Below, piece by piece: positions 1-26,230 of a stretch of 64,000 nt of DNA. Position 1 is the first letter of the stretch. Every line of letters begins with the position of its first letter. The stretch lies in IMG/VR virus record IMGVR_UViG_3300012940_000021, positions 63,912 to 127,911 of that record, one strand, 5' to 3'. The position numbers were made by a program, and so were the translations under genes. A model generated the notes under the pieces. That model worked only from the letters and a program-made list of their open reading frames with translations. It did not search any database and was not told the origin of the DNA. This stretch comes from a virus (taxonomy: Duplodnaviria > Heunggongvirae > Uroviricota > Caudoviricetes).

Positions 1-115
1 GGGACATCAAGGCTCGCGTCTTCAGACGCTCGACCTTGATTTCGAGGCCGGACTCCAGCGTGATTGGAGTGGCCTCGGCGGCGATGGTGTCGATGTCGTT
101 GTTGCCGGTCGTCAT
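1..115 (-). CDS. 5' end of a gene running off the window (N-terminus MTTGNNDIDTIAAEATPITLESGLEIKVERLKTRALMS...); unknown function, lies downstream of the putative major tail gene (tail assembly chaperone position)
   Basis: ATG at 115 (minus) preceded by CAGGAGAG Shine-Dalgarno; coding-like GC3-rich frame continues to window edge. Confidence 0.4.
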   Translation of the reverse strand, partial: MTTGNNDIDTIAAEATPITLESGLEIKVERLKTRALMS

Positions 116-166
116 GCGACTCTCCTGTTCATCGGTGTTGGGTTATGCGGTGACCTCAGACGAGGA

Positions 167-745
167 TCAGATCGGGCGGCTCAGGAGCCGTCCGACGGCC
201 TTGGTCGGCTGGCCGGTGAGCGAGTCGAGGACGGGGTTGCCCGCCTCGTCGGTGTCGCTGAACAGCGCCGATCCGTTGTAGTTGAGGAGCAGGCCCTCCT
301 TGTACGACGGACCGTCGAAGGAGAAGGGCTGGAACTGGACCTTGTAGAGGATGAAGTCCAGGTAGCGCACGAGGCCGTCGCGGTCCTTCGAGGGCACGCG
401 GATGAGCATCGGGCGTGGAGCGGTGTTCATCGTCCGCTCTTCCCAAAGCGGGAGCGAGAAGGTCTCGTTGTCGCCGCCGCCCGAGGAGGTCACGACCGAG
501 CCGGAGATCAGCGCGAGCGTGCGGAACGGGATGTAACCGCCCTGGATCGTGACGTTGACCTTGTTGGCCCAGTACCACGTCGAGAGGATCGTGTCGTCGC
601 CCGTGTTGTCGTAGCTGTCCTGGTCCAGCTCCAGCGAGCCGGAACGGATGCCGTAGATGTCACCGAACTCCTCTTCGAGGCCCGTGGAGCCGTCGAGGAT
701 TGCGGCGTGGGAGAGGGAGAACCCCTCCACGATGGGGCTTGCCAT
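167..745 (-). CDS. hypothetical virion structural protein, 192 aa; possible major tail subunit
   Basis: ATG at 745 with AAGGAGA SD 6 nt upstream; conserved promoter-like motif plus hairpin ~65 nt upstream; position after head-tail genes and before chaperone-position gene. Confidence 0.5.
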   Translation of the reverse strand: MASPIVEGFSLSHAAILDGSTGLEEEFGDIYGIRSGSLELDQDSYDNTGDDTILSTWYWANKVNVTIQGGYIPFRTLALISGSVVTSSGGGDNETFSLPLWEERTMNTAPRPMLIRVPSKDRDGLVRYLDFILYKVQFQPFSFDGPSYKEGLLLNYNGSALFSDTDEAGNPVLDSLTGQPTKAVGRLLSRPI

Positions 746-804
746 TGCTGTCTCCTTCAGAGCCGTGTCGAAGCCGATGCCTGGTACGGGCCAAGGCCCG
801 ATTT

Positions 805-825
805 CTCTATGTGATATCGGCCTCA
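805..825 (-). promoter_or_regulatory. left-arm conserved motif copy 1 (minus strand GAGGCCGATATCACATAGAGA), followed by GGGCCTTGGCCC hairpin and SD of gene 167-745
   Basis: near-identical 18-20-mer found 6 times, always in gene orientation upstream of starts. Confidence 0.6.
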
Positions 826-1036
826 GTCGCTCGGAGTGGCGACGGCGGTCTCTACCAGTTCCCCGGCGAGGTTGTAGCGGTGGAGGACCCGCGTCACCAC
901 ATCGCCGCGCTGGCGCATCGTTCGCTTGCAGTCGTCGCAGGCGAACTCGATGAGGTTACCCTCGACCACCTGGGGCTTCCCGCCCGAGAGGAGCAGCTTC
1001 GACAGGAGCCGCCGTGGACCAACGGGGCACCGGATC

Positions 1037-2197
1037 TCAACTGTCTGCATGGAACCCATCCCGTCGAGCCATCTGGGCCAGCGTCCAGAGCCGCTCGCCC
1101 TTCTCTGGAAGGGCCTCCCGCAGCTTCAGGAACAGGTTCTCGACCACCTTGTCCCACGAGTGCGATGCGGGCACGACCTGGGCGGCGATGTGGCCCTTCT
1201 CCCGGACCTCCGCTCGATTGCGGAAGCAGTGCAGCATCAGCTCCGCCAGGTGCTGCACGTCGGCGCGAGCGTTCAGGGTCTCCTTGTGGTAGATCGACTC
1301 TGGAGCGAGCGAGTAGTTGAGCGGGTAGGCATAGTCGGGCGACAGCCATTGCTTGTGCCCCGCCCAGTTGGTGGCGATCACCGTGCCGCCCGTGCTCATG
1401 AACTCCAGGGCGGGCATGTTCTTCCCCTCGCCGCGAGAGGGGGCGAGCAGCACGTGCTGGACCTTGTAGAACTCCTTCACGACCGAGGTCGGCCAGATGT
1501 CGTAGAACACCCGGAGCGACGTGTACTCCTGGCCGGTCTCCGGGTCCGTCTGCCGGTAGAGGTCTTCGATCTTGTGGTGCAACCCTGGGGCCGTCGTCTT
1601 CAGGCTGAGCCGCGCCCAGCGGTCGAACTCGGGGTCGGCCTGCTTGGCGCGGTTGAACGCCTCGATGGCGACGAAGGGGTCCTTGCGCTCGGAGAGCACG
1701 CCGATCATGAAGAAGTAGAACTCGCGGCAGTCCCAGTCCCGAGGCAGCTCCGGCCACTCGGTGGGATCGAACCCGCCCTGCTGCACGAAGATCGGCCCCT
1801 TGTAGTAGGGCCGGAAGGAGTCCACGTCGATGTCGGAGTAGCCCACGAAGGCGTCGAACCGCTTCAGGCGCTTGCGGAGGGTCTTCAGCGGCTTCTTGTC
1901 CATGTTGAGCACGTTCGAGTACTCCCACATGGTCCAAGCGATGCTGACCCCGCAGTTGCGGACGACCTCCTCCTTCGCTTCGAGGGCCATCGGGTCCACG
2001 TGGTTGATGAAGAGGTCGAAGGGCGCTCGCAGCTCCTTGGAGAGGAGCATCGCCACGTCCTCTGGAAGGCCGGAATCGACGTGGGTGGGGGACACGTAGA
2101 CATCGGCCCCCCAGCGCATGAGCGCCTGAGCCAGACCGATGCCGTCGTTGCCGTAGCCCGAGTATCTCGACAGCGGGATCTTCAGCAGCACCTTCAT
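1037..2197 (-). CDS. glycosyltransferase, GT-B fold family 1/4 (386 aa)
   Basis: C-terminal motif LAPSRGEGKNMPALEFMSTGGTVIATNWAGH resembling the GT4 E-X7-E nucleotide-sugar binding signature; full-length ORF. Confidence 0.8.
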   Translation of the reverse strand: MKVLLKIPLSRYSGYGNDGIGLAQALMRWGADVYVSPTHVDSGLPEDVAMLLSKELRAPFDLFINHVDPMALEAKEEVVRNCGVSIAWTMWEYSNVLNMDKKPLKTLRKRLKRFDAFVGYSDIDVDSFRPYYKGPIFVQQGGFDPTEWPELPRDWDCREFYFFMIGVLSERKDPFVAIEAFNRAKQADPEFDRWARLSLKTTAPGLHHKIEDLYRQTDPETGQEYTSLRVFYDIWPTSVVKEFYKVQHVLLAPSRGEGKNMPALEFMSTGGTVIATNWAGHKQWLSPDYAYPLNYSLAPESIYHKETLNARADVQHLAELMLHCFRNRAEVREKGHIAAQVVPASHSWDKVVENLFLKLREALPEKGERLWTLAQMARRDGFHADS

Positions 2198-2230
2198 GTG
2201 GACCTCCTGGGTCTCTCTTGTTTTCAGAAA

Positions 2231-2740
2231 CTACGGCTTGTTCACGCCGTAGGTGAGTCGCCCCATGTACGCGCCTTCGGCGTTGCTGATCGGGGAGAAG
2301 GTGGGACCGTCGAGCCGCTGGCTGCCGGTGATGGGCACCCCCGTCTTCGAGGCGATCTGCTCAGCGGTGCCCCAGATGTAGATTTCGCCAGAGGGCGTGC
2401 CGGAATCCACCAGATGCAGGTGCTTGTCCACGAACGCCTGGATGTCCTCGATCTTCTTCTTGGCGTCGAACTTCTTGATCGACTTGTCGGAGTTCCGAGT
2501 CGGGTCGGCCCAGATATCCACGAAGAGGCGAGGGAACCGCATGGTGTTGTGCTGGTTCGGCGTCGTCCAGGTGTCCTCCTCGTTGACGACGATGAGGCAC
2601 CTGCCGGTGTTCTCGACCTTGACGTTGACCGGGTGCTCATCGAAGATCCACGTGTCCCAGCTCTGCGAGCGCCCGAGGAGAGCACGCAGACCTTGGTCCT
2701 GGGCAAGAAGATTTCGAACGGCGAGGGAGAGGTCGGTCAT
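2231..2740 (-). CDS. hypothetical protein (169 aa), head-tail joining/tail region
   Basis: start MTDLSLAVRNLL... ATG at 2740 overlapping stop of upstream gene (ATGA coupling). Confidence 0.55.
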   Translation of the reverse strand: MTDLSLAVRNLLAQDQGLRALLGRSQSWDTWIFDEHPVNVKVENTGRCLIVVNEEDTWTTPNQHNTMRFPRLFVDIWADPTRNSDKSIKKFDAKKKIEDIQAFVDKHLHLVDSGTPSGEIYIWGTAEQIASKTGVPITGSQRLDGPTFSPISNAEGAYMGRLTYGVNKP

Positions 2741-3120
2741 CCTGCCAGTCCCTTCTTGACGGCGGCGATCCACTGCTCGTGGAGGACTCCGAGGCCAGCC
2801 ATGAAGTCGTGGTTGCCGTAGTGCTCGTCCGGCTCGCGCCGCTGCTCGTAGATCGCGTAGTCCACGGGGTTGTTCGGCCCTGTCGAGGGTCCGCCGTACT
2901 CGATGGTGCCCTCCCAGGTGTGATCGAGCTTGTCGGTGGAGGTCTCCTCCTTGCCGGACCCCTTCAGCGAACCGGTCTGGACGTGGACCTGGGCCTGGGT
3001 GATGCCGAAGCCCTCGCTGAGGACGGCACCGAGCAGAGCCTGGGTCTTCGCGTCGGGCATGCCGATGATCCGATCCAGCTCCTTGTCGATCTCGCTCCAG
3101 TCGCTCTCGATGCGGATCAT
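2737..3120 (-). CDS. hypothetical protein (127 aa), head-tail region
   Basis: MIRIESDWSEIDKE...; ATG at 3120 overlaps TGA of upstream gene (ATGA). Confidence 0.55.
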   Translation of the reverse strand: MIRIESDWSEIDKELDRIIGMPDAKTQALLGAVLSEGFGITQAQVHVQTGSLKGSGKEETSTDKLDHTWEGTIEYGGPSTGPNNPVDYAIYEQRREPDEHYGNHDFMAGLGVLHEQWIAAVKKGLAG

Positions 3121-3602
3121 GGCTCGTCCTCGATGGGGTCTTCGATGGGGTCTTCGATGGGGTCTTCGATGGGGTCTTCGCCCGGCCAGTTGTTCTGGGT
3201 CAGCTCCTGGCCGGTCTCGGTGATCTGGACCTCGATGTGATGCCGGGAGGAGAAGCCCACGGCCTCGTCCGGGATGGCTCGGATCTCGAAGGTTCCCTCG
3301 ACCGGAATCTCGTTCTGCTCGTTGGGGATGGCGACGATCCGGTCCCCCGCCTTGATCGGAGCGTAGGGGTAGGTGAACATGACGCCGATCCGGTCTGGAG
3401 CGCGCCCGGCGACCGGAGCCGGTGGGATGTCCTTCCCCTGCCGGATGAAGTTCATGTCGAGGCGGCACTTCAGGAAGTGCAGCATGTCGTTGAGCGCCGG
3501 GTCTTCGTCCGTCGCCTGGGCGTAGTCCATCACGGCCTCGCCGTCGGTCACGACGAGCTGGATGCGCTCGACCCGCACCGCCGAGTTGAACAGGTGGTCC
3601 AT
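3117..3602 (-). CDS. hypothetical protein (161 aa) with C-terminal (EDPI)x4 repeat
   Basis: complete ORF, coupled to neighbours; ends ...EDPIEDPIEDPIEDPIEDEP. Confidence 0.6.
   Translation of the reverse strand: MDHLFNSAVRVERIQLVVTDGEAVMDYAQATDEDPALNDMLHFLKCRLDMNFIRQGKDIPPAPVAGRAPDRIGVMFTYPYAPIKAGDRIVAIPNEQNEIPVEGTFEIRAIPDEAVGFSSRHHIEVQITETGQELTQNNWPGEDPIEDPIEDPIEDPIEDEP
3128..3180. repeat. perfect tandem 12-bp repeat (gatggggtcttc x4) encoding EDPI x4 at the C-terminus of gene 3117-3602
   Basis: directly visible in sequence 3132-3179. Confidence 0.9.
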
Positions 3603-3605
3603 GGG

Positions 3606-4157
3606 CTACTCCTGGTAGTACTGCGATCCGGGAGCCGGGTCGATGCCATAGGTGAAGTACTGGGAGAGCCGGATGTCGGCGGGCGAGAGGTAGTCCACGT
3701 TCCCGTTGCTGCCCGGAACGAAGACGCCATCGTTCTCGAACATCTCGATTCCGCCACCGCCGAACCCGATCTTGGCCGGGTCCACGTCGCCACAGACGGA
3801 GAGGTCCGCGATGGCCATGTCGAACCACGAGACCCCGGTGGGCAGTCCCATCTGAACGGCCTTGGCCATCTTCGAGTACGAGTAGGAGCCGATGGTCTCC
3901 GAGTTGAAGGGGGACGCGAGGACGGTCTGGTACGGAGCCACGAGATGGATCGCATCGGCCATCGACAAGATGGCGAAGTCCACGAGCTGCTTCTGGTCAT
4001 CCGTCAGGTCATCTGGAGATGCCAGGCAGGTGCCCAGCTTGAAGAGCAGAAGGGCCTGGGGGAGGGCGGAGTTCTCCACGTAGGCTTGCGGGAACGACGC
4101 CAATGGTCGCCCGGTGAAGTCCGCCAGGTCCTGGCGCGTGTACGTCTTGTAGCCCAT
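3606..4157 (-). CDS. hypothetical protein (183 aa), possible head-tail connector/adaptor
   Basis: complete ORF following capsid-proximal genes. Confidence 0.5.
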   Translation of the reverse strand: MGYKTYTRQDLADFTGRPLASFPQAYVENSALPQALLLFKLGTCLASPDDLTDDQKQLVDFAILSMADAIHLVAPYQTVLASPFNSETIGSYSYSKMAKAVQMGLPTGVSWFDMAIADLSVCGDVDPAKIGFGGGGIEMFENDGVFVPGSNGNVDYLSPADIRLSQYFTYGIDPAPGSQYYQE

Positions 4158-4177
4158 CCCCCAGTCCCTTCTCTTGG

Positions 4178-4828
4178 TCAGGCTCGAACGATGGGCACCC
4201 GGCGACCGCGACGGGCATCCGCCTTGGCGATCTCGTCATCGAACTTCTCGTGGCGCAGGCCGACGAACGGGCCGGGGGCGATGTACTGCTTGCCCCAGCG
4301 GTCGTACTGACCCTGCACGTCGTGCGCCAGGTCGAGCCAGGACTCGCCCCGACGGTTGACGGTGCGGAGGTAGTCCGGGCTTCCCTTGACGAACTCCAGC
4401 TCCTGGCCCCGATACCAGACCTCGCCCAGCGCGGTGAAGCCGTCCAGCACGACGTGGATCAGAATCTTCTCGCCGTCGGCCACGGTGTCCGAGTACACCG
4501 GCTCGGCGTGCTCGACAGCGGCGGCGGTGCGGCGAGCGAGCTGGTCCTCCAGGTCCTGGATCTCGCGCTGCTTCTCCGTGAGAGGCGCGGGAACCGCTGG
4601 AGTGGCCGCGAGGGCTGCCTTCAGCTCGCGGATGCGTCGGTCCTCGGCATCCTCCTCCACGACGACGGACGGGGAGGAGGTCCCGGCATCCAGCTTCTCC
4701 GGGGCGTCCAGAGGGTCGGCGTCGGGAGGAGACACCGGCTCTGGAGTCGGCTCTGGAGTCGGCTGCTCGGCGTCGTCGTTCGTGAGATCGAGCAGGTCAT
4801 CGAAGTTGTCGGGAGTGTTCTCGGCCAC
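4178..4828 (-). CDS. hypothetical acidic protein (216 aa) downstream of major capsid gene
   Basis: GTG at 4828 with AGGAGG SD 8 nt upstream and conserved motif immediately upstream; longer ORF to 5056 overlaps capsid gene and is rejected. Confidence 0.5.
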   Translation of the reverse strand: MAENTPDNFDDLLDLTNDDAEQPTPEPTPEPVSPPDADPLDAPEKLDAGTSSPSVVVEEDAEDRRIRELKAALAATPAVPAPLTEKQREIQDLEDQLARRTAAAVEHAEPVYSDTVADGEKILIHVVLDGFTALGEVWYRGQELEFVKGSPDYLRTVNRRGESWLDLAHDVQGQYDRWGKQYIAPGPFVGLRHEKFDDEIAKADARRGRRVPIVRA

Positions 4829-4847
4829 TGGTGCGCCCTCCTGGGGG

Positions 4848-4868
4848 TCTCTATGTGATATCGGCCTT
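4848..4868 (-). promoter_or_regulatory. left-arm conserved motif copy 2 (GAAGGCCGATATCACATAGAGACC)
   Basis: identical core to other copies; sits between capsid gene stop and next SD. Confidence 0.6.
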
Positions 4869-4941
4869 CTGGTCGATGCCCTTAGCGTACAAGCGGGAGG
4901 CCCCCGCTCCGTAGAACGAGGGCCTCCGCGTGTGGGCTGGC

Positions 4942-6054
4942 TCAGGCAGCCTGCGTCACGTTGCTGACGTAGATGAACTGCTCCGGGCGCGTGATGACCG
5001 GCAGGAGGTTCCACTCCAGCAGGTACTGCCGCGCCGACGGGTCCTTGTCCTTCCACGTCTTGGCGAACTTGCCCGTGTAGTTCTCCGGGGCCTCGTCATC
5101 GGCGGTGGGGCCGATGAAGACCTCGATGGGGCGGTTCTCCGTGAAGTTGCCCAGGACGAGGGCGTCGTCCGCGAGGAAGAGCTGCTCCTGGCCGGGGTCC
5201 GTCGGGGACGACGTGTAGGCCGCGCCTGCCGCGTCGTACACCGCCTCCTGCGGACGCCAGTTGAGACCCATGAAGCCCGGCAGCACGCCCGTCTGGTAGT
5301 ACTGGTCCTTCATGCGGTCGGAGAGCAGGATGCCGCCCTGGGTGCCGGGGGCGCTGAGGCCCGCGTTGGCGAACGAGTCGAAGATGTACGCGATGGTCTT
5401 CTCCGTCGCGTAGGCATCCTGCGCCTCGACGCGACCGTCGCGGCGGATGAGGCGCTTCCACGCCCGGATGTCCTCCACGATCTGGCCCGGAGCGGCGCTG
5501 TCCCAGCCGACCGACGGGGACGGCTTGTGGGACGGCAGGAACTTGTAGTCCACCGTCGCCTGGACATCCGGGTAGTCCAGGACCAGCTCACCCGTGAGGG
5601 CCTGCCAGATCATGAACTCCGCGAAGTTGTCGAAGCGCTGGTTGAGGTCCGCGACCTCGCGCAGGACGGCCTCCTCGGCGCGCCGGTTGGCCAGCTCGCT
5701 GATGGAGTTCGCCGCCTGGCGGAGCCAGTGAAGAGTGGTCGGCTCGAAGACCTTCTTCTCCCGGAGGTAGACGAAGGCCGCGCTCTCGGTCGAACGACCG
5801 AGGCGAGGCACGATGTGCGCCTCGGAGTTCGGCACGTTCGGGCGAGCGATGGCACGCGAGCCACGGATCACTTCCCACTGGACGGTGGGGAAGGGGTGCG
5901 GCGTCTGCGGGATGCGGCTGAGCATCTCCAGCGACTCTGGGGCCGTGAAGCGCTCGACCACACCACGGAGAACCGTGGGCTGGAGCAGGGAGATCTCGGG
6001 CACTGGAATCATCCTTTCGTTGCGCCAGAGCTTGACTGGGTTGAGCAGCGACAC
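4942..6054 (-). CDS. major capsid protein (370 aa)
   Basis: size, position after scaffold/decoration genes and before head-tail genes; abundant-protein codon usage. Confidence 0.65.
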   Translation of the reverse strand: MSLLNPVKLWRNERMIPVPEISLLQPTVLRGVVERFTAPESLEMLSRIPQTPHPFPTVQWEVIRGSRAIARPNVPNSEAHIVPRLGRSTESAAFVYLREKKVFEPTTLHWLRQAANSISELANRRAEEAVLREVADLNQRFDNFAEFMIWQALTGELVLDYPDVQATVDYKFLPSHKPSPSVGWDSAAPGQIVEDIRAWKRLIRRDGRVEAQDAYATEKTIAYIFDSFANAGLSAPGTQGGILLSDRMKDQYYQTGVLPGFMGLNWRPQEAVYDAAGAAYTSSPTDPGQEQLFLADDALVLGNFTENRPIEVFIGPTADDEAPENYTGKFAKTWKDKDPSARQYLLEWNLLPVITRPEQFIYVSNVTQAA

Positions 6055-6190
6055 CTGGCGGTGCCCGACCTGCGCCCCACCGCGAAGGTGGTCACTTGGC
6101 TGGTCTGTTTTCGAGTTGTCCGGTTGGGCTACTCGCGGATCGGCTGGGGCTTTCGACCCAGCCTCACCGTCAGTCTCCCGACCCCTCGGA

Positions 6191-6583
6191 TCAGAACTTG
6201 AAGGTTCCGATGACCGAGTTCACACGAGCGCCGAGGACGTTCGTGAGGGTGACGCCGGAGTTGGCCGACGAGACCTTGGCGAGCTTGGCGATGCCCGTGA
6301 GGACGATGTTCGCCTGCCATGCCTGGCCGTCGGGGTCGGTGCCGGTGTCGGTGGTCTGACGCAGGAGGCCCTCGGCGGTGTTGTCCGTCGCCACGACGTA
6401 GTGCTTCGTCGAGGGGTCCTGCTTGATGAGCGTTCCGAGGAGGAGGACACCCTGGCCGGGCTTCAGCGTGACGCCCTTCTGGGTGTAACCGACCGTGGAG
6501 AAGAGCAGCTCGTCATCGACGGACGTGGCGCTCTTCGCGTAGCCGGGAGCTGGCATCGCGTTGCCGGTGTAGGGGATGGACAT
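6191..6583 (-). CDS. putative head decoration protein (130 aa)
   Basis: small Thr/Gly-rich protein between scaffold and capsid genes (lambda C/Nu3-D-E type order). Confidence 0.4.
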   Translation of the reverse strand: MSIPYTGNAMPAPGYAKSATSVDDELLFSTVGYTQKGVTLKPGQGVLLLGTLIKQDPSTKHYVVATDNTAEGLLRQTTDTGTDPDGQAWQANIVLTGIAKLAKVSSANSGVTLTNVLGARVNSVIGTFKF

Positions 6584-6627
6584 TTCGAGGTTCTCCTATT
6601 CGAGTGGGTCGGTGACTGAGGGGCGGG

Positions 6628-7152
6628 TCAGGCGCGAACCTTCGCGCTGGTCTTCTCGGCGGCGATGTTCGAGAGGCGGGCGATCTCCTGCTCGACGGTC
6701 TCCTCGTGGGACTCGTCGGCGGGCTGGAAGCCCTCCTCGACCGAGAGCTTCACGACGGGCTTCTCCGGGATGAGCTTGTCGAAGAGGTCCTTGTTCGTGA
6801 GGCGGAGTTCGAGCATCGCCTCCTTGTCCTTCGGGAGGATGAAGCCGGAGAGCGAGAGCTTCTCGACCTCGGCCTGCGCCTCCTTCTTGGCAGCCTCCTC
6901 GCGGATCTCGTTGACGCTGTTGGTCAGCTCCACGATCTTGTTGCCCGCCTCGGCCACCGCACCGATGAGGGTGTCGGCGTCCACGGTCTCGTCCGTGTTG
7001 GAGAGCTTCAGCAGGCCGGTGCCCACCAGCTCCTCCTGGATCTTGTTGGACAGCGCGAGCGCCTTGTCCGCCTCCGCCGCCTTCGCCTGGAGCGCGGCCA
7101 CGTCGATGCCGTGGTCCGTCTTCAGCTCCGCGAGCAGTTCATCGAGAGTCAT
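6628..7152 (-). CDS. possible nested in-frame scaffolding protein (174 aa, MTLDELLAELK...) made from an internal start, lambda C/Nu3-like
   Basis: internal ATG at 7152 preceded by AAGGAAGAGGAAG and, ~50 nt upstream, an extra copy of the conserved motif inside the coding region. Confidence 0.35.
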   Translation of the reverse strand: MTLDELLAELKTDHGIDVAALQAKAAEADKALALSNKIQEELVGTGLLKLSNTDETVDADTLIGAVAEAGNKIVELTNSVNEIREEAAKKEAQAEVEKLSLSGFILPKDKEAMLELRLTNKDLFDKLIPEKPVVKLSVEEGFQPADESHEETVEQEIARLSNIAAEKTSAKVRA

Positions 7153-7737
7153 CGTGACTTCCTCTTCCTTGGTCTCGGTGGCTGGTGTCAGGACCACCAT
7201 CTGGTTTGTGATATCGGCCCCACGAGCCGACGCTGCGATGACCTCTTCGAATCCGTCGAGGTCGGTGACGTAGGGACGGTTGGTGATGGCCGTGTGAAGG
7301 AGGGTCGGTCCCACCTTCTGACCGGTCTTGGTGTCGGTGTAGTTCAGGTGGAGCATGGCGCTCGCCCCGAGCAGGGTCTTGCCCACCTTGTCCGCGTCCT
7401 CGGTGCGCACGTCGATGTCGGCGTAGAGACCCTTCGGGGTCTTCACGAGGTTGATGACCTCACCAATGTTCCGGTCCGGGTCCTCGGTGTGCTCGTTGTT
7501 CGGTCCCGCCTTCGGGACCTGAACGATGTCGGCCACCTTGTTGCTGAAGTTGGTGATGAGGGTGTCCACGAACTCCTCATCGACCTTCACCTTGCCGCCC
7601 TTGACGCCGGGGTAGATGAGGTCGCCGTAGTGCAGGATCTGCTTGCGGAAGACGCGACCCTGCTTCGAACGCGACAGCGGAATGAAGCCCTCGTCCTTCG
7701 TGGGAGGGACGATAGCGAAGCCATCGAAGTCGGTCAT
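6628..7737 (-). CDS. capsid maturation protease/scaffold fusion-like protein (369 aa): N-terminal globular domain plus C-terminal Glu/Lys/Ala-rich coiled-coil scaffold domain
   Basis: ATG at 7737 directly abutting conserved motif (leaderless arrangement); C-terminal half strongly coiled-coil-like. Confidence 0.55.
   Translation of the reverse strand: MTDFDGFAIVPPTKDEGFIPLSRSKQGRVFRKQILHYGDLIYPGVKGGKVKVDEEFVDTLITNFSNKVADIVQVPKAGPNNEHTEDPDRNIGEVINLVKTPKGLYADIDVRTEDADKVGKTLLGASAMLHLNYTDTKTGQKVGPTLLHTAITNRPYVTDLDGFEEVIAASARGADITNQMVVLTPATETKEEEVTMTLDELLAELKTDHGIDVAALQAKAAEADKALALSNKIQEELVGTGLLKLSNTDETVDADTLIGAVAEAGNKIVELTNSVNEIREEAAKKEAQAEVEKLSLSGFILPKDKEAMLELRLTNKDLFDKLIPEKPVVKLSVEEGFQPADESHEETVEQEIARLSNIAAEKTSAKVRA
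7201..7221 (-). promoter_or_regulatory. left-arm conserved motif copy 3 (GGGGCCGATATCACAAACCAG) located inside the protease/scaffold ORF
   Basis: 13-mer core TGTGATATCGGCC identical to intergenic copies. Confidence 0.5.
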
Positions 7738-7757
7738 GCTATGTGATATCGGCCTCT
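7738..7757 (-). promoter_or_regulatory. left-arm conserved motif copy 4 (AGAGGCCGATATCACATAGC) immediately followed by ATG of the protease/scaffold gene
   Basis: motif-CATAGC-ATGACCGAC identical to copy at 26211. Confidence 0.6.
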
Positions 7758-7828
7758 GCGCCGCATACTTGACCATCTCGCAGACATGCCGAAGGCCCCC
7801 GCCGAAGCGAGGGCCTCCGTGCTCCCGG

Positions 7829-9064
7829 TCAGACCGAGTTGACGAACCGCTGGAAGGCGCTCCAGGTCATCTTGCCGGGGATGCCGTCCACTGGACCCGC
7901 GTACCCCCAGTCGCGCTTCAGCCACCGCTGGAAGGCGCTCCAGGTGTACTTGCCCGGCACCCCGTCGATGGGACCGGTGTAGCCCCAGTACTTGGCGAGG
8001 AACCGCTGGAGCGCCTTGTAGGTGTTCGGGCCGGGGATACCGACCACCGGGCCGGTGTAGCCCCAGTCTCGCTTCAGCCAGAACTGGCCGCGCTTCCACG
8101 TGATCGTGCCGGGCACACCGTCGATCTGGGTCCGAGGCAGCGCCTCCTGAGCTGGAGCGGACGGCTTCGGAGGGTTCTTCAGCGCCTTCCCCGCCCGGCC
8201 CATGGCCGCGTAGGTGAGCGGGCCTGGAATGCCGTCCACGACTCCGGTGTAGCCGTACTCGGCCTTCAACCAGCGCTGCGTCGCTCCCCACGAGAGCTTC
8301 GCTGGAAGGCCGTCGATGATGCCGAGGTAGCCCCACTTCTGCTTCAGGAAGGACTGCATCGCCTGCCAGGTCAGGCGACCTGGAATGCCGTCGATGATGC
8401 CGGAGTAGCCCCACTGACGGGCGAGCCAGGTCTGGAGGCCCTTCCACGCCTCGATGCCTGCCGCACCCCCGAGGTTGTAGCCCGCCGTGCCGTCACCTGC
8501 GGGGCCGGTGCCGCCGCCCCCTGGAATCGGCGCTGGAGCCTGGCCCTGGCCGAGGATCTCCCGAGCGCGGTTGACGATCCAGTCCATGTTGAGGCCACCG
8601 GGGCAGGCGGTGGCGTAGGAGGCCCGGTAGCGGGTCCACAGCTCGCGGTGCCCCTCGACGGTCGAGGTCCGGTTGAGGTCGATGCCGTACCGGCGAGCCA
8701 CGTCGGCGCAGAGCTGGGCGACTCGCTCGTGCGCCTTCGAGGACACCGGCCAGTTTGGAGCGCCCGCCTCGTTCTCGATCTCCAGCGTGATGGAGCGGCG
8801 GTCGAAGGCTGCGCCCTTCCCGCCGTCGGTCGAGGACCCTGAAGTCCAGGCGCGGTCCTCCTCGTCCACCACGCCCGTGATGCGGCCCTCGTTCGAGACC
8901 GTGTAGTTGGAGGAGACCTGGCGCGAGCCGGTCACCATCATGTTGATGACCGCATCGTCGTTGGTCCCCGCCTGGTGGTGGAGCGTGATGTGGTCGATGC
9001 GTGCGCCCTGGCGAGCCGAGCGCTGTGGAGAGCGCCGGATCTGGTCGGTGAGTCCCGAGAACAT
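7829..9064 (-). CDS. endolysin: N-acetylmuramoyl-L-alanine amidase (Amidase_2/PGRP-type) with 6-7 C-terminal PG_binding_1-like repeats (411 aa)
   Basis: HITLHH...GHRELW...ACPGG zinc-ligand pattern of T7-lysozyme-type amidases; repeats WGYxGxxDGxPGxxTWxAxQRFL. Confidence 0.85.
   Translation of the reverse strand: MFSGLTDQIRRSPQRSARQGARIDHITLHHQAGTNDDAVINMMVTGSRQVSSNYTVSNEGRITGVVDEEDRAWTSGSSTDGGKGAAFDRRSITLEIENEAGAPNWPVSSKAHERVAQLCADVARRYGIDLNRTSTVEGHRELWTRYRASYATACPGGLNMDWIVNRAREILGQGQAPAPIPGGGGTGPAGDGTAGYNLGGAAGIEAWKGLQTWLARQWGYSGIIDGIPGRLTWQAMQSFLKQKWGYLGIIDGLPAKLSWGATQRWLKAEYGYTGVVDGIPGPLTYAAMGRAGKALKNPPKPSAPAQEALPRTQIDGVPGTITWKRGQFWLKRDWGYTGPVVGIPGPNTYKALQRFLAKYWGYTGPIDGVPGKYTWSAFQRWLKRDWGYAGPVDGIPGKMTWSAFQRFVNSV
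7832..8497. repeat. tandem ~75-81-bp coding repeats (peptidoglycan-binding modules) in the endolysin gene
   Basis: protein-level repeats ...DGIPGxxTWxAxQRWLK... x6-7. Confidence 0.7.
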
Positions 9065-9085
9065 GTTGGCCCCTTGTTTTTGGAA

Positions 9086-9361
9086 TTACTGCGACTGGTA
9101 CTGACTGCGGGCGTCGAGGAGGATCTCCTCCAGGTCGATGCGGTCATCATCGACCGATCCCCACCAGAAGCGGTGATTCGCGGAGCGTGTCTTCTCTTCC
9201 ACGAAGACATCCCAGGGAACGCTCGTGCCCTTGTACCCGACGATCTGCTCGCCCTGCTTCTGGAGCTGCTCGAAGCCCGGCTGGTAGAACACGTCACCGA
9301 CCTCGGAGAAGATTCCGACCGGTTCGCCCTCCAGGGTCTTGTGGATCAAGAACAGGGCCAT
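9086..9361 (-). CDS. hypothetical protein (91 aa)
   Basis: ATG overlapping TGA of upstream gene; complete ORF. Confidence 0.5.
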   Translation of the reverse strand: MALFLIHKTLEGEPVGIFSEVGDVFYQPGFEQLQKQGEQIVGYKGTSVPWDVFVEEKTRSANHRFWWGSVDDDRIDLEEILLDARSQYQSQ

Positions 9362-9657
9362 CAGAACTCCTTCATCGTCGTCTTGATGGCCTTCTCCTGC
9401 TCCGCCGAGAGGGGGGCGAACCGGAAGCGCCGACCCTCGGAGTGGAAGACCCAATCGCCGTCCTCGCGGACCATGATGTCCTCGGGGTAGAACACCATGT
9501 CCTTCATCGGCAGCGCCCAGCCGATGACGACCGTCTTGCCCTGGTCTTCTCCGACCTCGACATCGACCATCTCGAAGTTCGGGCGCTCGCCCTCCTGGGC
9601 GACGATCACACCGTGCGGGAAGGCCCGGTGAAGCTCCTCCTGAGTCACTTCGTCCAC
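9361..9657 (-). CDS. hypothetical protein (98 aa)
   Basis: ORF overlapping 13 nt with the end of the giant gene. Confidence 0.5.
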   Translation of the reverse strand: MDEVTQEELHRAFPHGVIVAQEGERPNFEMVDVEVGEDQGKTVVIGWALPMKDMVFYPEDIMVREDGDWVFHSEGRRFRFAPLSAEQEKAIKTTMKEF

Positions 9658-12600
9658 TGAGCCTTCACCTTCGCAATCGCTGCCTGCAAGTTTACGCGCA
9701 TGACGAACCGATCCTCGATGGGCAGTCCTCGGAGCATGGCGAAGCCGAGCGCCTTCATGCGCTGGATGGCCTCGTTCCGCTTCTCGGCGTTGTCGAAGAC
9801 GAAGATCTCCAGGTGGTCGAGGATCGACATCGCGTTCGGAACCATGGTCTCGTTGCTCGATCCGGTGAAGCTGGTCAGCGCCTTCAGCGGGTCGTACTTG
9901 TTCTGGCTCTGCTGGTCCGTGCGATCACCGAAGCGGTCGCCGGAGAACGAGTAGGTGTCCACCTGAGTGAAGACCGACGGGTTCCAGTAGGCCACGTGCT
10001 TGCCGTAGATCGAGCCGGAGAACTCGACGCTCGCCCCGGTGTGCGCGATGCGCGTGAAGACGCTGTTCGCGCCACCCGTCCCCTGGTCGGAGCCGGAGGA
10101 GGCACCCTGCTTGAAGTAGCCGAGGATGCGCAGACGCTCCTCCGTCGAGAGCATTCCACCCGACGTGATGTAGCGCAGGAGCGAGTCGTCCTTGCCGTTG
10201 TTGCCGATGGCCACCATGTGGCCCTTCTTCAGCACCTGCTCCAGGTCCACATCGATGCGCTCGTAGTACGGCTTGCCCGTGGCCAGCTCCGGGTTGGCGA
10301 GGTCCATGTGGTTGAACTTCGGCATGTGCTTGCCCTGGGCGATGAACGAATCGACGCGATCCTTGCCCCAGGCTTCCTCCGAGATGCTGCGGTAGAACGC
10401 CAGCTCTTCGGTGTCGCTCATGCTCAGGCCGATGCCTTCGATGAGGGTCCAGTCGGTGAGGTTCTCCCCGTTCGGTCCCTTGACCGTCTGCTTCTTGTCC
10501 TTCAGCTTCTTCAGGGCGCTCTTCACCGTGGCTGGGGCGCTCGACTCCGCGTAGGTGAAGATGACGCGCTCCCACATCGCACGCCAGTAGTTCAGCTCCG
10601 CCTGGGTCTCATCGGCCCCCGTGAGGTCGAGGCCCATGAGTTCGAGCTGGGACTGCACCCGAGCGAGCGAGGCTTCCTTGTCCGGCCCGACGAGGCGGAA
10701 CGACACGGTGCCGCGCTGCGACCGAGCGGTGTTCGTGCTCGTGGAGTTGCGGAAGAAGATGACCTCGCCGGACGGCAGCGTGATCCGGTACTCCTTGCCG
10801 GTGTGCCCGGACGTGCCCTCGTCCTTCGAGTTCTCGACCTTCAGACCACCCTCGTTGAGGGTGCCGCCCTTGCCCGCCGCAGACTGGACGGTGTACAGGA
10901 CCTCCTTGACCGCCTCCTGCGGCTCGGCCTCGACGTTGTTGGTCCAGCCGTCCGGCAGGGCGTTGGGGTCCACCGGCAGCGCCCCGACCGAGACCTCGGA
11001 CCCCTTGGACGAGAGCCACTGCCCGTTCGCCAGCTCGGTGTAGGTGATGCCGTCGGGGCTGACGATGATCCGCCCCTCGACCTTCGGAGCGAGGCCCTGG
11101 AAGACCGTGAAGTCGCCCTTGTTGGTCGTGCCTCCCTCGGAGATGGCCGTCTTCACCTTGCCGATCTGGGTGAAGTAGTGGTCCAGCATCATCTTGTACT
11201 GGGAGAGGTACTCCGGCGCGACTCGCTTGCCCGACGGGAACTCCACGTAGTCGGCGTTGCCCTCTGGCTCCAGGTCCGGCTTCCAGAAGGCGGCGTCCGC
11301 CAGGAGGGTCTGCTCCAGGCTGTTGAACGCCGAGATGATGTCGGGGTCGTACTCCTTGTCCACCGAGTTCTTGGTGACGTTCTTGCCCGCCGCCGTGATG
11401 GTGGACTTCCAGTCGTTCGTCGTTGGGAACTGTGCCTGGTTCAGGTAGATCGGCTGGGTGTTGACCGAGTTGACCTGAACCTGCTGCGCCTTCGGCTGGA
11501 GGAAGGCCAGCAGCTTGTTCTGGGCGAGGTCCCCGAGCGTGATCTGGCCCTTGTGCAGCTCCTCCCCGGTCTCGTTCTGCTCGGTCCAGAGCAGCGAGTG
11601 GCCGTTGTGGATCGAGGCGCTTCCGTGCAGCGGGGCGGCTCCCCAGACCTTGGTCTCGGCTGCCTTGTCGAGAACGCCCGGCTCGTCCCAACCGGAGATG
11701 TGCTCCTCGAAGACGGTCGGCGGCTCCTCGGGGAGTCCTCCGAATCCGGCGTCCTGGAAGATCTTGTCCCACATCTGGTCGATCTGCTCGACCAGCTTGC
11801 TCTTGCGGTGGAGGAACGCCTTCACGAGCTGGTCCGCGTTCGCCGGAGCATTGCGGTGCGTGAAGTGGGTCATGTAGTCCGGCACGTCCCAGTTCGTGCG
11901 GAACTCGACCGCCTCGCGGACCATCTGCTCGGCAGCGGCGTCGTCGGACTTCTGGATGCGGGACGCCGCCTTGCGGGCACCCTGGTACGCCTTGACGGCG
12001 GTCTCGTAGTCGATGGTGCCGTTGCGGATCTTGTCGTAGAGCTGGGTGTAGACCAGGGTGGCGTTCGTGTGCGCCGAAGCGTCCCCAGAGATGCCGTTCC
12101 AGTTGCCGTAGACGAAGAACGCCCGCCCCTTGTCGATGCCGACCACTCCGCCGCTCGGCGTCATCAGGAGGTTGTCCGGGTGGGTGTCGTCGTTGTCGAG
12201 CGCCCAGTCGAGCACGTGCTCAGCCGCGATGGCCGCGAGCTGCTTCTCGTTGAGGGTCTCCATTTGGATCTCGCCATCGCCGTTACCGGCGAACGACCCT
12301 ACGTTGTCCACGAAGTTCTGAATGAGTCCCTCGTGACCGTCCTCGGTGGTCGCCATGACCGTCTTGGCCGACTGGAAGCCCCACATCCGAGCCAGCTCGT
12401 TGGCCTTGTGCTCCATCTGGGCGCGGGCCTTCTGGTCCTCGCTGTTCCAGGGCTTGAAGATGTACTTCCGGTCGAACTGGTCCTTGACGAGCCAGACCTC
12501 GTGGCTGCCCTTGTCGATCTGCTCCACCTTGAAGTACTTGGGCTTGTTCAGCTCCTCCAAGTACGCGGCGTGCTTGGCGTCGAAGTAGGCGGCGACGATC

Positions 12601-15600
12601 TCCTCGGACTTGTACTTCGTGCTGTAGTCGGTGTTCGAGGGGTCCCACTCCAGACCCCCGACCGACGTGTCGTAGTTGGAGTAGAACTCCTTGAAGTCCG
12701 GGTCCTGGAAGTGGTCCTTCGCCCAGTCGGTCGTCACGTCGTAGGGGGTGGCCTTCCAGATGCTGCCCTGCGGCCACGGAGTGTCCGGGTTGTTTTCGAA
12801 AACGTGGTCGTAGCTCTTGGCGGGCTGCACGTCGTCGGTCCAGGTCGGAGCATCCGAGAGCGCGGCGTCGCCGTTCTGCTTGCGGACCTGCGCGAGCGCG
12901 GAGAGCTGGTCCACCTTCTCCTTCTGGCCCTGCTTGTGAGCGAGGACCCACTGGCGCTTCTCCGCGTTCGACAGGAACGTCGGGTTCTGCATCTGGGCCT
13001 TGATGAGGTAGTTCTGGATCTCCGGGAGGGATGGCTCGATGCCCGGCGAGGTCCAGTTGCCCTCCACCGGCTCACCTGCCGGAATCTCCCCCTCGACGGC
13101 AGGCCCCCAGGTGATCTGATGCGTGGCCTCGCTGCCCTCGTAGCCGGGGTGCAGGTAGCCCGAGTTGTGGGCCTTCCCCTCCTTGGCAGCCGCCGAGACC
13201 TCGATCTGGTAGAGCGCCTTGAAGTCGCCCTTCTTGAACGCCGCGACCCACTTCTGGCGCTCCCACTTGTCCATCTTGGTCAGGTGCTGGCCGATGATCT
13301 TGCCGTCACCGATGGACGCCGACGCCGCCTTGATGTACGAGCCGAGGGAGTTCTTGTCGTAGGAGTTGACGGTGAGCGCCGCGACCGAGGCGGGGAACTT
13401 GGCGTAGCCCATCTCGTTCCACTCGAAGAGGTCGGCGGCGTTCGCCTCGGGCGTGCTGGTGTCCACCCCGGAGAGGAGGCCGTCCATGGCCTCCTTCAGT
13501 GCCTGCACCGCGTTCTCGGGGGTGTTCTCCGTGAAGCCGTTCTCCGCACGCCACTTGACCCAGAGCGGCTGCTGCCAGAAGACGCCGAGGCTCTTCAGCT
13601 TCTCGCCCATGGCGTAGGCGCTCTCGTCCGTCACCGTGTCGAGGTACTGCCGAGCCTGCATCAGCGACGGGACGGTCGTCTGCGAGCCGAAGAAGAACAC
13701 CGACCCGGTGTAGCCCTCTGGCAGCACGGACATGCCGAACTTGTCCGTGAGCTGCCCCTTCGAGAAGAGCGTGTTGACCTTCTTCTTGTCGAACTCCACC
13801 GGGTCCTGGAGGCCGTGGCTGAGGACGTGCGAGTAGTAGGTGGCCCAGATGTTGGGCTGTTCCTCGGGAGGCTTGACCTCCTCCCCGGTCTTGGGGTCCG
13901 TGAAGTGCCACTTGCCGTCGGAGTGCTTCGTGGCCTCGTAGGGCTGCACGTACTCGCCGTCTTCGTAGTGCGAACTCGTGACCTCGTACTTCGCTCCCAC
14001 GCCTGCGGCGTTCAGCCAATCGGTTGTCGGGTAGCCCCCGATCTTGACCCCGGTCATGGCGGTCACGTCGGTCTTGGGCTTGAAGATCTTCGCCGTGTCG
14101 GTCGAGACCTCGTAAACCGCCGTCTTGGGGTTCTGCGGGCTTCCGGCGAAGTAGGTGCCCGGAGTGAGATCCGACACGACGACGGGCTTCTTCGGCGCGG
14201 CCTTCGCCGTGGGCGACGGGATGTCGTCGGGCATCCCGTGGTACTCCTTCATGCCCTTGTCGTAGTTCGTCTTCACCGCCTTGGCCGTGAGCTTCGACAC
14301 CCCGCCCTTGGTGTTGACGTAGACGCCCGTGCCGTCGGCGGCGACGACCATGTACGCCTTGCCTCCCGGCGAGGAGTACTTGCCGGGCACGATCTCCGGG
14401 TTCTCATTGAGGGTCGGGTTCTCCACCGGGGAGAAGTCCCAGTCGCCCTGCATGGCGTTGAACATCTCGGAGTCGTTCATGAACCCGAAGCCGTTGTCGG
14501 AGAGGTTGTCTCCCGTCTTGGCGTCGTAGATCGTCCAGTGGTCCTCCCCCTCCTTCACCGCGACCATCTGGAAGTCCGTGCCGGGCGCACCGTTCTGAGC
14601 CTTGGTGCCGACCGGAGCGTCCTGGACCACCTTCAACGAGAAGTCACCGTCGTCCTTGCTCAGCTCCTCCTGCTGCTTGTCCTGGAGCGCCGGAGGGGTC
14701 TTCGCGTAGTCGGGCAGCACGTCCGGCTTCGACTCGATGCGGAGGAACCCGTTGTCGATGGCCCCCGAGAAGGAGTCCTCGCCCAGCACATTTCCACTGC
14801 CGTCGTCGGTCCACTGCGCCGCGCTGATCTTGGTGTAGGTGTGCGGAATCCCTCCGGTGCCCTGCCAACGCACCACGGTTCCCACAGGGAGACCCGACAG
14901 CTCTTCGAGGCTCTTCACCTTCGGGTGCTGGATGTCGGTCTCCGTGCGGACCAGCTTGGCCTTCAGGAGGTCGATGAACTTCTGCTTGGTGACCGTCTTG
15001 TCCTTGTCGAAGCCGACGATGGAGTTCGGGTTGAGAGACCCGAGAGCGTTCATCTTCTTGTTCAGCTCGGACTTGAAGTTCTTGCCCTGGAACGATTCCA
15101 GGATGTCGATGGCCTGCTGGACCTGGGACATCGTGAACTCTCCGCCGTCCATGCCCTGCACGCCCGTGCTCTTCGGCGTCTTCGAGCCGATCCAGACCTT
15201 GGGGGCGTTCTCCTCCTCGACGCTCGTCCCTTCCTCGATGCCGATGGAGTCCTTCAGGTACTTGATGACGGCAGGCTTGGCCTTCAGATCCGGGTACTTG
15301 TTGAGCGCGGCGACCTTCAAGGACTCCTGGTTCTCGGCGCTCTTCAGCGGGTTGCTGTCCGGCAGCGCCTTCAGGCCGTAGCTGACGTGGAAGGACGAGT
15401 GCTCCTCCAAAGCCTTGTACGCCTCCGCGATCTGGATGGAGGACATGGCCGGAGCACCTGGCCAGAGCTGCTTGTCCTTGGCTCCGAAGCTGCTCTCCGG
15501 GGCCTTCGGCGCGACGTAGCGCAGATTCCCCGCCGCGACGGCATCGCCCATGTCGCCGGGCGTGAACGCCAGGTTCGGCCACTTCGGATCGTCGGCGGGA

Positions 15601-20087: not shown

Positions 20088-20128
20088 TCTTCTGGCCAGA
20101 AGAATGTCTGCTCTGTGATATCGGCCTC
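20088..20128 (-). promoter_or_regulatory. left-arm conserved motif copy 5 (AGAGGCCGATATCACAGAGCAGACA) followed by 16-bp perfect palindrome TCTTCTGGCCAGAAGA, upstream of the giant gene
   Basis: seen in sequence. Confidence 0.6.
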
Positions 20129-25763: not shown

Positions 25764-26210
25764 CTACTGGCCGATGGCGGCGTACTTCTCCGCGAAGTGC
25801 CGACGGACGCGCTGGCGCTCGGACGCATCCGAGATGAGTTCCACGGCCTCCAGCGAGATCTTGGTGACCTCCTCCATGAGCGCGGCGCGGAGCTGCTCCT
25901 GGCTGACCTGGAGCACGCGGTTCCACTCCTTCAGCAGGTCGAGCCACTGAGCATTGAAGTCCTTCTCGGTGTTGACTCCGACCCAGCCGTGCTCCTCGCG
26001 GTACTTGATGATGAGGTAGCGAGTGACGATGCGCTCCAGCAGGATCTCCTGGGCGGTGTGCATCGGGATGCCGAAGGCTTCGGCGCGCAGGCGGCTCTTC
26101 AGCTCGTCGTGGAGCGCGAGCAGCTCGGGGTCCTGGGCGATGTACTCCGGCAGACGGAACGCTCGTTCGAGACCGTCAGCGGGTGCTGCATCGAGATCGC
26201 GGTCGGTCAT
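25764..26210 (-). CDS. hypothetical protein (148 aa), possible terminase small subunit by position
   Basis: ATG at 26210 immediately after conserved motif (leaderless arrangement identical to 7737). Confidence 0.4.
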   Translation of the reverse strand: MTDRDLDAAPADGLERAFRLPEYIAQDPELLALHDELKSRLRAEAFGIPMHTAQEILLERIVTRYLIIKYREEHGWVGVNTEKDFNAQWLDLLKEWNRVLQVSQEQLRAALMEEVTKISLEAVELISDASERQRVRRHFAEKYAAIGQ

Positions 26211-26230
26211 GCTATGTGATATCGGCCTCG
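26211..26230 (-). promoter_or_regulatory. left-arm conserved motif copy 6 (CGAGGCCGATATCACATAGC + ATG); its TAG is the stop codon of the upstream GT2 gene
   Basis: seen in sequence. Confidence 0.6.

Follow-up and report, generated by a model that had tools for sequence, protein, structure and literature searches.

A putative second promoter within the linker codons of a Mu-I-like protease–scaffold gene in a family of large actinobacterial phages

Textbooks describe scaffolds nested in frame within a capsid protease gene for Mu, lambda and the herpesviruses; to our knowledge, a separate promoter for the nested scaffold is documented only in herpesviruses. Does a tailed phage use one too? The question is raised by a 64,000-nucleotide (nt) stretch of Caudoviricetes DNA (positions 63,912–127,911 of IMG/VR record IMGVR_UViG_3300012940_000021; hereafter the window), in which a protease–scaffold gene contains, within its coding sequence, a copy of a 13-nt motif whose other copies lie ahead of genes. 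We favour, at a probability of about 0.7, a reading in which a fusion of a Mu-I-like capsid maturation protease with a scaffold gives two in-frame products from two promoters—one upstream of the gene (P1) and one inside it (P2). Sequence features, conservation, covariation, the predicted fold and a sigma gene in relatives were computed; from these we infer promoter activity, transcript starts, use of the internal ATG, reading of the motif by a sigma factor and the stoichiometry of the products.

A protease-fold domain joined to a helical part

The window is 65% G+C phage DNA whose minus strand carries the structural genes. The original prediction placed a protease/scaffold-like open reading frame (ORF) of 369 amino acids (aa) at 6628–7737, and its translation and predicted fold bear this out (features are collected in Table 1). 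The gene caller begins the same gene at ATG 7776, giving a 382-aa product (P0001). This start is probably wrong, because in relatives the start codon directly follows the motif described below.

An AlphaFold2 model of the 369-aa protein, built on 54 homologues, has a well-predicted N-terminal domain (pLDDT, the predicted local distance difference test score, 85–94 over residues 1–155), a linker with pLDDT below 50 at residues 157–178 and 183–196, and helices at residues 198–363. Foldseek gives the T4 gp21 capsid protease (5jbl) as top match (E = 6e-5, probability 1.0), followed by proteases of the herpesviruses EBV (Epstein–Barr virus), KSHV (Kaposi's sarcoma-associated herpesvirus), PRV (pseudorabies virus) and VZV (varicella-zoster virus) at probabilities of 0.8–0.9 and identities of 12–16%. 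H83, S126 and H148 are invariant across the 54 family sequences; they show the pattern of an assemblin-type Ser/His/His site and are candidates for catalysis.

The sequence signal may point towards Mu. Against the Pfam family PF10123 (Mu-like_Pro, Mu-like prophage I protein) the window protein scores 22.9 bits, for a cut-off of 25.2, and 52 of the 54 homologues match at E ≤ 1e-3 (best 2.7e-9). Aligning the family profile with Mu gpI by hhalign yields a marginal match (E = 0.07) confined to the C-terminal 52 columns. The 369-aa protein has no S49 or ClpP match in Pfam, the whole protein and its halves have none in PHROGs, and a PDB sequence search with the family profile returned nothing.

Relatives come from one cultured phage and from metagenomes. 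The cultured one is Microbacterium phage Magritte (133 kb), itself a singleton (PMC11663251), whose gp19 'scaffolding protein' is 54% identical to the window protein. Metagenome searches add 744 protein matches, many on contigs of 110–140 kb, 39 viral-contig loci, and two closer relatives at 82% and 80% identity. Judged by these matches, the window phage belongs to a large, almost unannotated family of actinobacterial phages of ~125–140 kb. The comparison of internal starts below covers 29 non-redundant relatives with identities of 41–82%. Magritte gp19 (L001:15992-17119) is annotated only as a scaffolding protein, while its N-terminal half lies in the protease-fold domain.

An internal ribosome site and a nested start

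In the window the purine run AAGGAAGAGGAAG is followed by TCACG and then by an in-frame ATG at 7150–7152. The original prediction had pointed to this Shine–Dalgarno (SD)-like run and ATG after the motif; both are present and both are kept in relatives. An SD sequence (GGAG, GAGG or AGGA, 5–14 nt upstream) with an in-frame ATG (GTG in one case) stands at the start of the helical part in 29/29 non-redundant loci. The scoring script by itself called 25/27 loci positive and returned no start for two more; the four loci that it missed or mis-scored belong to a long-linker subclade in which the true Met lies further upstream, and direct reading reveals the SD sequence there as well. At other in-frame positions an SD-like core occurs in 19%. 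In 115 of 120 homologues a Met aligns to within a few columns of the internal start, among surrounding residues that vary.

The internal ATG encodes Met196, two residues ahead of the first long helix, so that the nested product would be the helical, scaffold-like part of the protein. Its predicted identity as the C-terminal 174 aa (MTLDELLAELK..., ~19 kDa) holds: the start is in frame, and the product corresponds to the helical part of the modelled structure. The equivalent nested start in Magritte gp19, at L001:16562, is unannotated; it would give a 185-aa product beginning MATKEELIEAL, within a gene whose own ATG is at record position 18374.

A leaderless start at the in-frame ATG 7200 (M180) was considered as the main nested start and rejected. 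This codon would lie at +3/+4 rather than +1, and M180 is not conserved, being Val, Leu, Ala or Ile in most homologues. Folding of the putative 5′ leader of the nested mRNA gave no unusual structure (z = −0.03).

Copies of the motif in the window

Exact copies of the motif GGCCGATATCACA number six in the window, and all lie on the minus strand (810–822, 4854–4866, 7207–7219, 7742–7754, 20114–20126 and 26215–26227). Allowing up to two mismatches yields eight matches where 1.1 are expected, a count reached in 0/100 shuffles. All six copies are co-oriented with genes and five sit just upstream of gene starts. The remaining one, an exact 13-mer at 7207–7219, is the copy inside the protease–scaffold ORF that had been noticed from the sequence. 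Whether it is the only intragenic copy, as then claimed, turns on 20114–20126, which falls inside a mechanical 3542-aa ORF. That copy lies upstream of a probable GGAG+GTG start at ~20075, most likely in a 5′ untranslated region, and it is therefore reasonable to take 7207–7219 as the only copy within a gene, with this caveat.

The internal copy shares 15 positions with the 18-nt consensus GAGGCCGATATCACATAG. It departs at the 3′ end, with AAC in place of TAG, a deviation we attribute to the in-frame TAG that a full match would create. The two copies of leaderless type (7737–7754 and 26210–26227, minus strand) are identical over 28 nt (GAGGCCGATATCACATAGCATGACCGAC), a stretch that reaches into two unrelated genes and takes in their opening Met-Thr-Asp codons. 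Recent copying could account for this, as could selection acting on whichever bases are transcribed or translated first.

Covariation of the internal and upstream motifs

Nearly every relative has a motif with a CCGAT core ~18–21 codons after the conserved NRPY, that is, in the linker position, and a similar motif 6–8 nt before the start codon of the gene. Across 26 upstream and 28 internal copies CCGAT hardly varies, within a family-wide core GCCGATA. The original prediction depended on such conservation, and the internal copy proves not only to be conserved but also to co-vary with the intergenic motif of its own phage.

We compared the 8 nt after CCGAT between the upstream and the internal copy in 24 non-redundant genomes: agreement is 4.58/8 within a genome versus 2.94/8 between genomes, and 0/100,000 re-pairings reach the observed sum (permutation p < 1e-5). 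The window has GATATCACA in the upstream and internal copies alike, Magritte GATATCCCTGA, the relative at 80% identity (L045) GATAGTACA and L025 CCAATGGTAG; agreement within the phage is also seen in L006 (GATACTAC), L032 (GATACTCC) and L020 (GATGGTAGT). The linker peptide follows the motif, from ADITNQ in the window to ADSTYQ in L045 and, elsewhere in the family, VDIPED, ADTTYR and ANGSED.

Codon choice points the same way. When linker codons were compared in 27 genomes, the Asp codon of the motif was found to be GAT in 24/24 genomes, whereas these genes use GAT for 23% of their Asp residues; taken naively, the joint probability of this fixation is 10^-16.7, a value that treats the genomes as independent, which they are not. 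A fixed synonymous base, combined with agreement with an intergenic sequence, is not explicable by constraint on the protein, which argues that the site is selected as DNA. Where the gene has an SD-led start and no upstream copy within 100 nt, as in L022/L042 and L033/L041, the internal copy (GCCGATAA) is nevertheless kept.

GATATC was considered as a palindromic restriction or methylation site and discarded, the relatives keeping only CCGAT.

A sigma-28-like element and a candidate sigma factor

The −10 element of sigma-28 promoters is GCCGATAA, spanning −15 to −8 (PMC12784957). In all six window copies of the motif, GCCGATAT matches it at 7/8 positions. Counting 7 nt on from GCCGATAT sets +1 at or beside the ATG of two window genes (7737 and 26210), and in Magritte the same geometry sets +1 exactly on the ATG of two genes; these genes would thus be leaderless. 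The internal copy of Magritte contains GTCGATAT, with a predicted start ~8 nt downstream, near record position 18902. For Magritte gene 9 (L001:2950-3417), ATG L001:2971, which a motif copy immediately precedes, is a likelier start than 2950.

The family also has a candidate reader. Magritte gp47 (L002:11756-12493), annotated 'DNA binding protein', finds its best NCBIfam match in FliA_WhiG (E = 3e-14), passes the sigma-70 superfamily model (51.1, cut-off 42.9) and carries Sigma70_r4_2 (E = 3e-9); by these scores it is a sigma-70-family protein closest to FliA/WhiG. Homologues of gp47, some of them named FliA by the Joint Genome Institute (JGI), share contigs with protease–scaffold homologues in at least five genomes (133228, 126252, 135342, 84002 and 124313 bp). 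A viral-contig search with the single sigma protein gave no match. By synteny with Magritte, the sigma gene of the window phage would lie ~17 kb beyond the start of the window. A second Magritte protein annotated 'DNA binding protein', gp60 (L002:18245-18943), has a weak Sigma70_r2/sigma70-ECF signal, and gp47 and gp60 are candidates for middle and late sigma factors. We infer, with good motivation from these likenesses, that a phage-encoded sigma-28-like factor reads the motif.

Two other readers were considered and rejected. For an ordinary sigma-70/SigA promoter, a consensus scan of positions 1–10000 found none, and the hexamers of the motif misfit TANNNT. As for an RNA polymerase of the phage itself, the Magritte annotation lists none, and Pfam scans covering 55 window and 58 Magritte ORFs turned up none.

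Hairpins and the proposed transcription unit

Two motif copies, 7742–7754 and 4854–4866, directly follow strong GC-rich hairpins, which a T-run terminator scan left undetected and folding revealed. A stem-loop also abuts the motif in L004, L005 and L007, with a T-run in L004. On its sequence, a hairpin followed by the motif reads as a terminator ahead of a promoter, the order that also precedes Mu gene I. The two window hairpins share the stem GGAGGCCCTCG...GGGGGCC and look like copies of one element.

We propose the following scheme. The unit would be bounded by the hairpins at 7788–7822 and 4893–4929. P1 (7742–7754), just after the first of these terminator-like elements, would start transcription at or 1 nt before ATG 7737, and the leaderless (or 1-nt-leader) mRNA would be translated into the 369-aa protease–scaffold. 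P2 (7207–7219) lies among the codons for the disordered linker and would give rise to a second transcript that begins at ~7202 and has a ~50-nt 5′ leader, a good SD site and ATG 7152. From it would come the 174-aa helical scaffold, then the 130-aa protein and then the major capsid protein, so that the internal promoter would drive two further genes beyond the scaffold alone. The internal ribosome site could be used on P1 transcripts too. Little protease would be made, and much scaffold and capsid protein, and the protease would be taken into procapsids through its scaffold tail, the C-terminus that the two products share. The motif would act as a −10 element of the sigma-28 class (GCCGATAT beside GCCGATAA) without a conserved −35, and its reader would most likely be the host RNA polymerase with the phage-encoded FliA/WhiG-like sigma factor.

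A broader claim, to which we give somewhat better than even odds, is that a large actinobacterial phage family uses the herpesvirus solution: a promoter set in linker codons would supply scaffold, 130-aa protein and capsid protein in excess over a leaderless protease message, and the amino-acid sequence of the linker would be dictated by promoter specificity, since the promoter must keep matching a fast-evolving phage sigma-28-like factor. If true, the presence of a two-transcript layout in tailed phages would make the strategy either much older than the herpesviruses or easily reinvented, and the linker would offer a clear example from nature of protein sequence whose evolution follows a transcription signal. 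The layout is backed by covariation across dozens of genomes. For the 125–140 kb phage family the analysis further suggests what the late-promoter motif is likely to be and which protein is a candidate sigma factor, and it corrects several annotations.

Table 1. Features of the protease–scaffold locus, with positions counted from the first letter of the window
Feature	Position	Strand	Description
Strong hairpin after the capsid gene	4893–4929	−	Terminator-like; −42.7 kcal/mol, z = −5.1; 0/200 shuffles fold as well
Major capsid protein gene	4942–6054	−	Pfam Phage_cap_E, E = 3.3e-26; last gene of the putative P1/P2 unit
130-aa ORF	6191–6583	−	Between scaffold and major capsid genes; position of a decoration protein
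Full-length protease–scaffold gene	6628–7737	−	ATG 7737, stop 6628; 369 aa; ORF and translation
Nested in-frame gene (predicted)	6628–7152	−	174 aa, MTLDELLAELK...; helical scaffold part; equals the C-terminus of the long product
Linker, aa 157–195	7153–7269	−	Predicted disordered; holds the internal motif and the SD-like run; aa sequence variable among relatives
SD-like purine run	7158–7170	−	AAGGAAGAGGAAG; GAGG core 8 nt upstream of the internal ATG
Internal motif copy (putative promoter P2)	7204–7222	−	Exact 13-mer 7207–7219; GCCGATAT at 7211–7218; predicted start ~7202–7203
N-terminal domain, aa 1–155	7273–7737	−	Beta-rich capsid maturation protease fold (predicted); candidate catalytic H83, S126, H148
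Upstream motif copy (putative promoter P1)	7742–7754	−	GCCGATAT at 7746–7753; ATG 7737 at predicted +2
GC-rich hairpin	7788–7822	−	13-bp main stem; between the endolysin gene and P1; −36.3 kcal/mol, z = −2.2; terminator-like without a T-run

Alternative explanations

Several observations weigh against two promoters. Upstream of −18 no position is conserved in the 6 window and 7 Magritte copies, which leaves the motif without a −35 element (TAAA or TCTAAAG, ~15 nt upstream), yet the candidate sigma factor has region 4. Conservation of the motif in each phage through the discriminator to −1 is not obviously explained by a sigma factor alone. The FliA_WhiG score of gp47, 53 bits, is far below the 190-bit cut-off of that family. 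No Sigma70 match occurs among the 55 window ORFs, and the window phage's own 128,478-bp contig was recovered neither by the sigma protein search nor by a metagenome scan with the sigma alignment. One relative, L019, is a clear exception with no recognisable internal copy, and covariation is strong in the half of the family closer to the window phage but faint or missing in the distant L021, L027 and L040. The conserved A-D residues of the linker and the AAS upstream of them could also be constrained at the level of the protein, as a cleavage site for instance. Finally, what we say of expression rests, for all family members, on comparing sequences.

The alternative that survives best, although we judge it unlikely, needs no second promoter. 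The nested scaffold would arise by internal translation initiation on the P1 transcript only, and the internal motif would be inactive as a promoter: either a decaying relic of an ancestral fusion with a scaffold gene that had its own promoter, or some other DNA-binding site. Mu and lambda do manage by translation alone (for Mu, see PMC4378225), and both the missing −35 and the missing internal copy of L019 fit such a scheme, as does the deviation of the last 4 nt of the internal copy from the consensus. That deviation is accounted for in the window by avoidance of an in-frame TAG, however, and a relic would not stay matched to the changing motif of each phage, would not fix a rare GAT codon in 24/24 genomes and would not persist in L022/L042 and L033/L041, where the upstream copy is absent.

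More improbable still is that only the full-length polyprotein is made, the scaffold being freed when the protein cleaves its own linker, for instance at the conserved AAS, and the SD sequence and ATG being incidental to Lys/Glu-rich coding. Chance purine runs sit poorly with an SD sequence and start codon in 29/29 non-redundant loci versus 19% SD-like cores elsewhere in frame, and with a Met kept in 115/120 homologues at the exact start of the helical part among variable neighbours. The proposal draws on E-x-[IL]-A-A-S, which most homologues conserve ahead of the linker motif, just 5′ of the internal copy (7222–7240, minus strand; aa 166–171). Assemblin-type proteases cleave at Ala-Ser, and the conserved (I/L)-A-A-S may be a site of this type that parts protease from scaffold. 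With a possible cleavage site just before the motif, proteolytic release may coexist with the internal initiation that we favour.

The remaining idea, that the motif is an RNA-level signal (an endoribonuclease site that makes leaderless mRNAs, or a sigma-dependent pause) whose internal copy processes or pauses the long transcript, has very little left to recommend it: the motif does stand immediately 5′ of start codons in two genes, is conserved in each phage up to −1 and in the window contains ACA, but what is invariant family-wide is CCGAT rather than the 3′ part, the CCGAT part matches the sigma-28 −10 in sequence and in distance to the start codon within a family that has FliA-like sigma genes, and two copies follow terminator-like hairpins, so that no upstream transcript would be available for processing there.

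Comparison with known systems

On these comparisons the nested start would be the already known Mu I/Z strategy, and an internal promoter in a tailed-phage protease–scaffold gene would be the new element; in the literature we searched, with incomplete coverage, no report describes an internal promoter in a phage protease–scaffold gene. Mu gene I encodes 361 aa, and Z starts at its residue 179 with its own ribosome site (PMC4378225), against 369 aa and an internal start at residue 196 in the window. The two systems have in common the PF10123 family signal, which in the window protein itself stays below the cut-off, and a Mu-like head module (Portal_Mu, Phage_Mu_F), as well as a layout of terminator, late promoter, ~360-aa protease gene, in-frame start with ribosome site in mid-gene, and capsid gene. 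No internal promoter is annotated in Mu. The window further has a long form predicted to lack a leader, a 130-aa gene that separates the scaffold and capsid genes, and a capsid protein of the lambda gpE type (Phage_cap_E).

Herpesviruses offer the parallel for the second transcript. Their UL26.5 scaffold is expressed from its own transcript, which arises within the UL26 ORF and is ~10-fold more abundant, and this separate scaffold transcript is described as conserved across Herpesvirales (PMC11565193). It matches the architecture proposed here, in which the motif suggests the internal promoter. In both systems a protease of assemblin fold is fused to a scaffold, with a Ser/His/His-like set that is invariant in the phage family. 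The hosts belong to different domains of life with different transcription machinery, and the proteases share 12–16% identity; the resemblance may be convergent rather than inherited.

Likening the gene to lambda C/Nu3, as the original prediction did, fits the predicted nested in-frame scaffold; the closest precedent is Mu I/Z, however, with its PF10123 signal, and the predicted protease fold matches assemblin and T4 gp21 rather than S49/ClpP. In lambda, translation of Nu3 begins in frame inside gene C, the protease gene, and its product equals the C-terminus of gpC. A further likeness is the order of genes, with a decoration gene and a gpE-type capsid gene following. Lambda gpC is an S49/ClpP-like protease and not of assemblin fold, so the window gene is no member of the lambda C/Nu3 family, and lambda makes one late transcript, with no known internal promoter. 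Also invoked as a parallel was gpO of phage P2, which is processed by autocleavage and is not known to be co-expressed from an internal start; it is probably no good precedent.

The motif resembles sigma-28 (FliA/SigD/WhiG) promoters in matching their −10 element at 7/8 positions, its distance to the start codon would suit the expected +1, and the family has FliA/WhiG-like sigma genes, which score far below the family cut-offs. It differs from them in having no conserved −35 of the TAAA type and in its phage-specific conservation through the discriminator to −1.

Neighbouring genes and other features

Upstream of the protease–scaffold gene, Pfam identifies Portal_Mu and Phage_Mu_F genes, neighbours that fit a Mu-like head module. 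The 130-aa ORF on the other side has no match in Pfam or PHROG; for Mu-like phages the position of the decoration protein has been argued by synteny (PMC4378225).

The endolysin gene next to P1 (7829–9064, minus strand) encodes Amidase_2 and PG_binding_1 domains and contains, at 7841–8415, a 78-nt (26-aa) unit present six times, with the pattern W-G-Y-x-G-x-(I/V)-D-G-(I/V)-P-G. Beyond it lies a giant ORF (9645–20075, minus strand) of ~3476 aa from its probable GTG start, which is preceded by the motif copy 20114–20126 and has an inverted repeat in its 5′ leader. Its sole Pfam signal is a weak PI3_PI4_kinase match below cut-off (E = 1e-3, aa 2559–2654), and its homologues in relatives, from 1991 aa in Magritte to more than 3100 aa, are all unannotated.

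From 26 to 64 kb the window is non-structural, encoding a sliding clamp (DNA_pol3_beta), clamp-loader subunits, a Dam methylase, a 2′-5′ RNA ligase, an Acb1-like anti-CBASS (cyclic oligonucleotide-based antiphage signalling system) protein and a Band_7 protein. The clamp and its loader recall the clamp-dependent late transcription of T4. Within a gene of the structural region, at 3122–3180 (minus strand), there is a tandem repeat of 12 nt (GATGGGGTCTTC, plus strand), and a related repeat of 18 nt occupies the syntenic place in L043.

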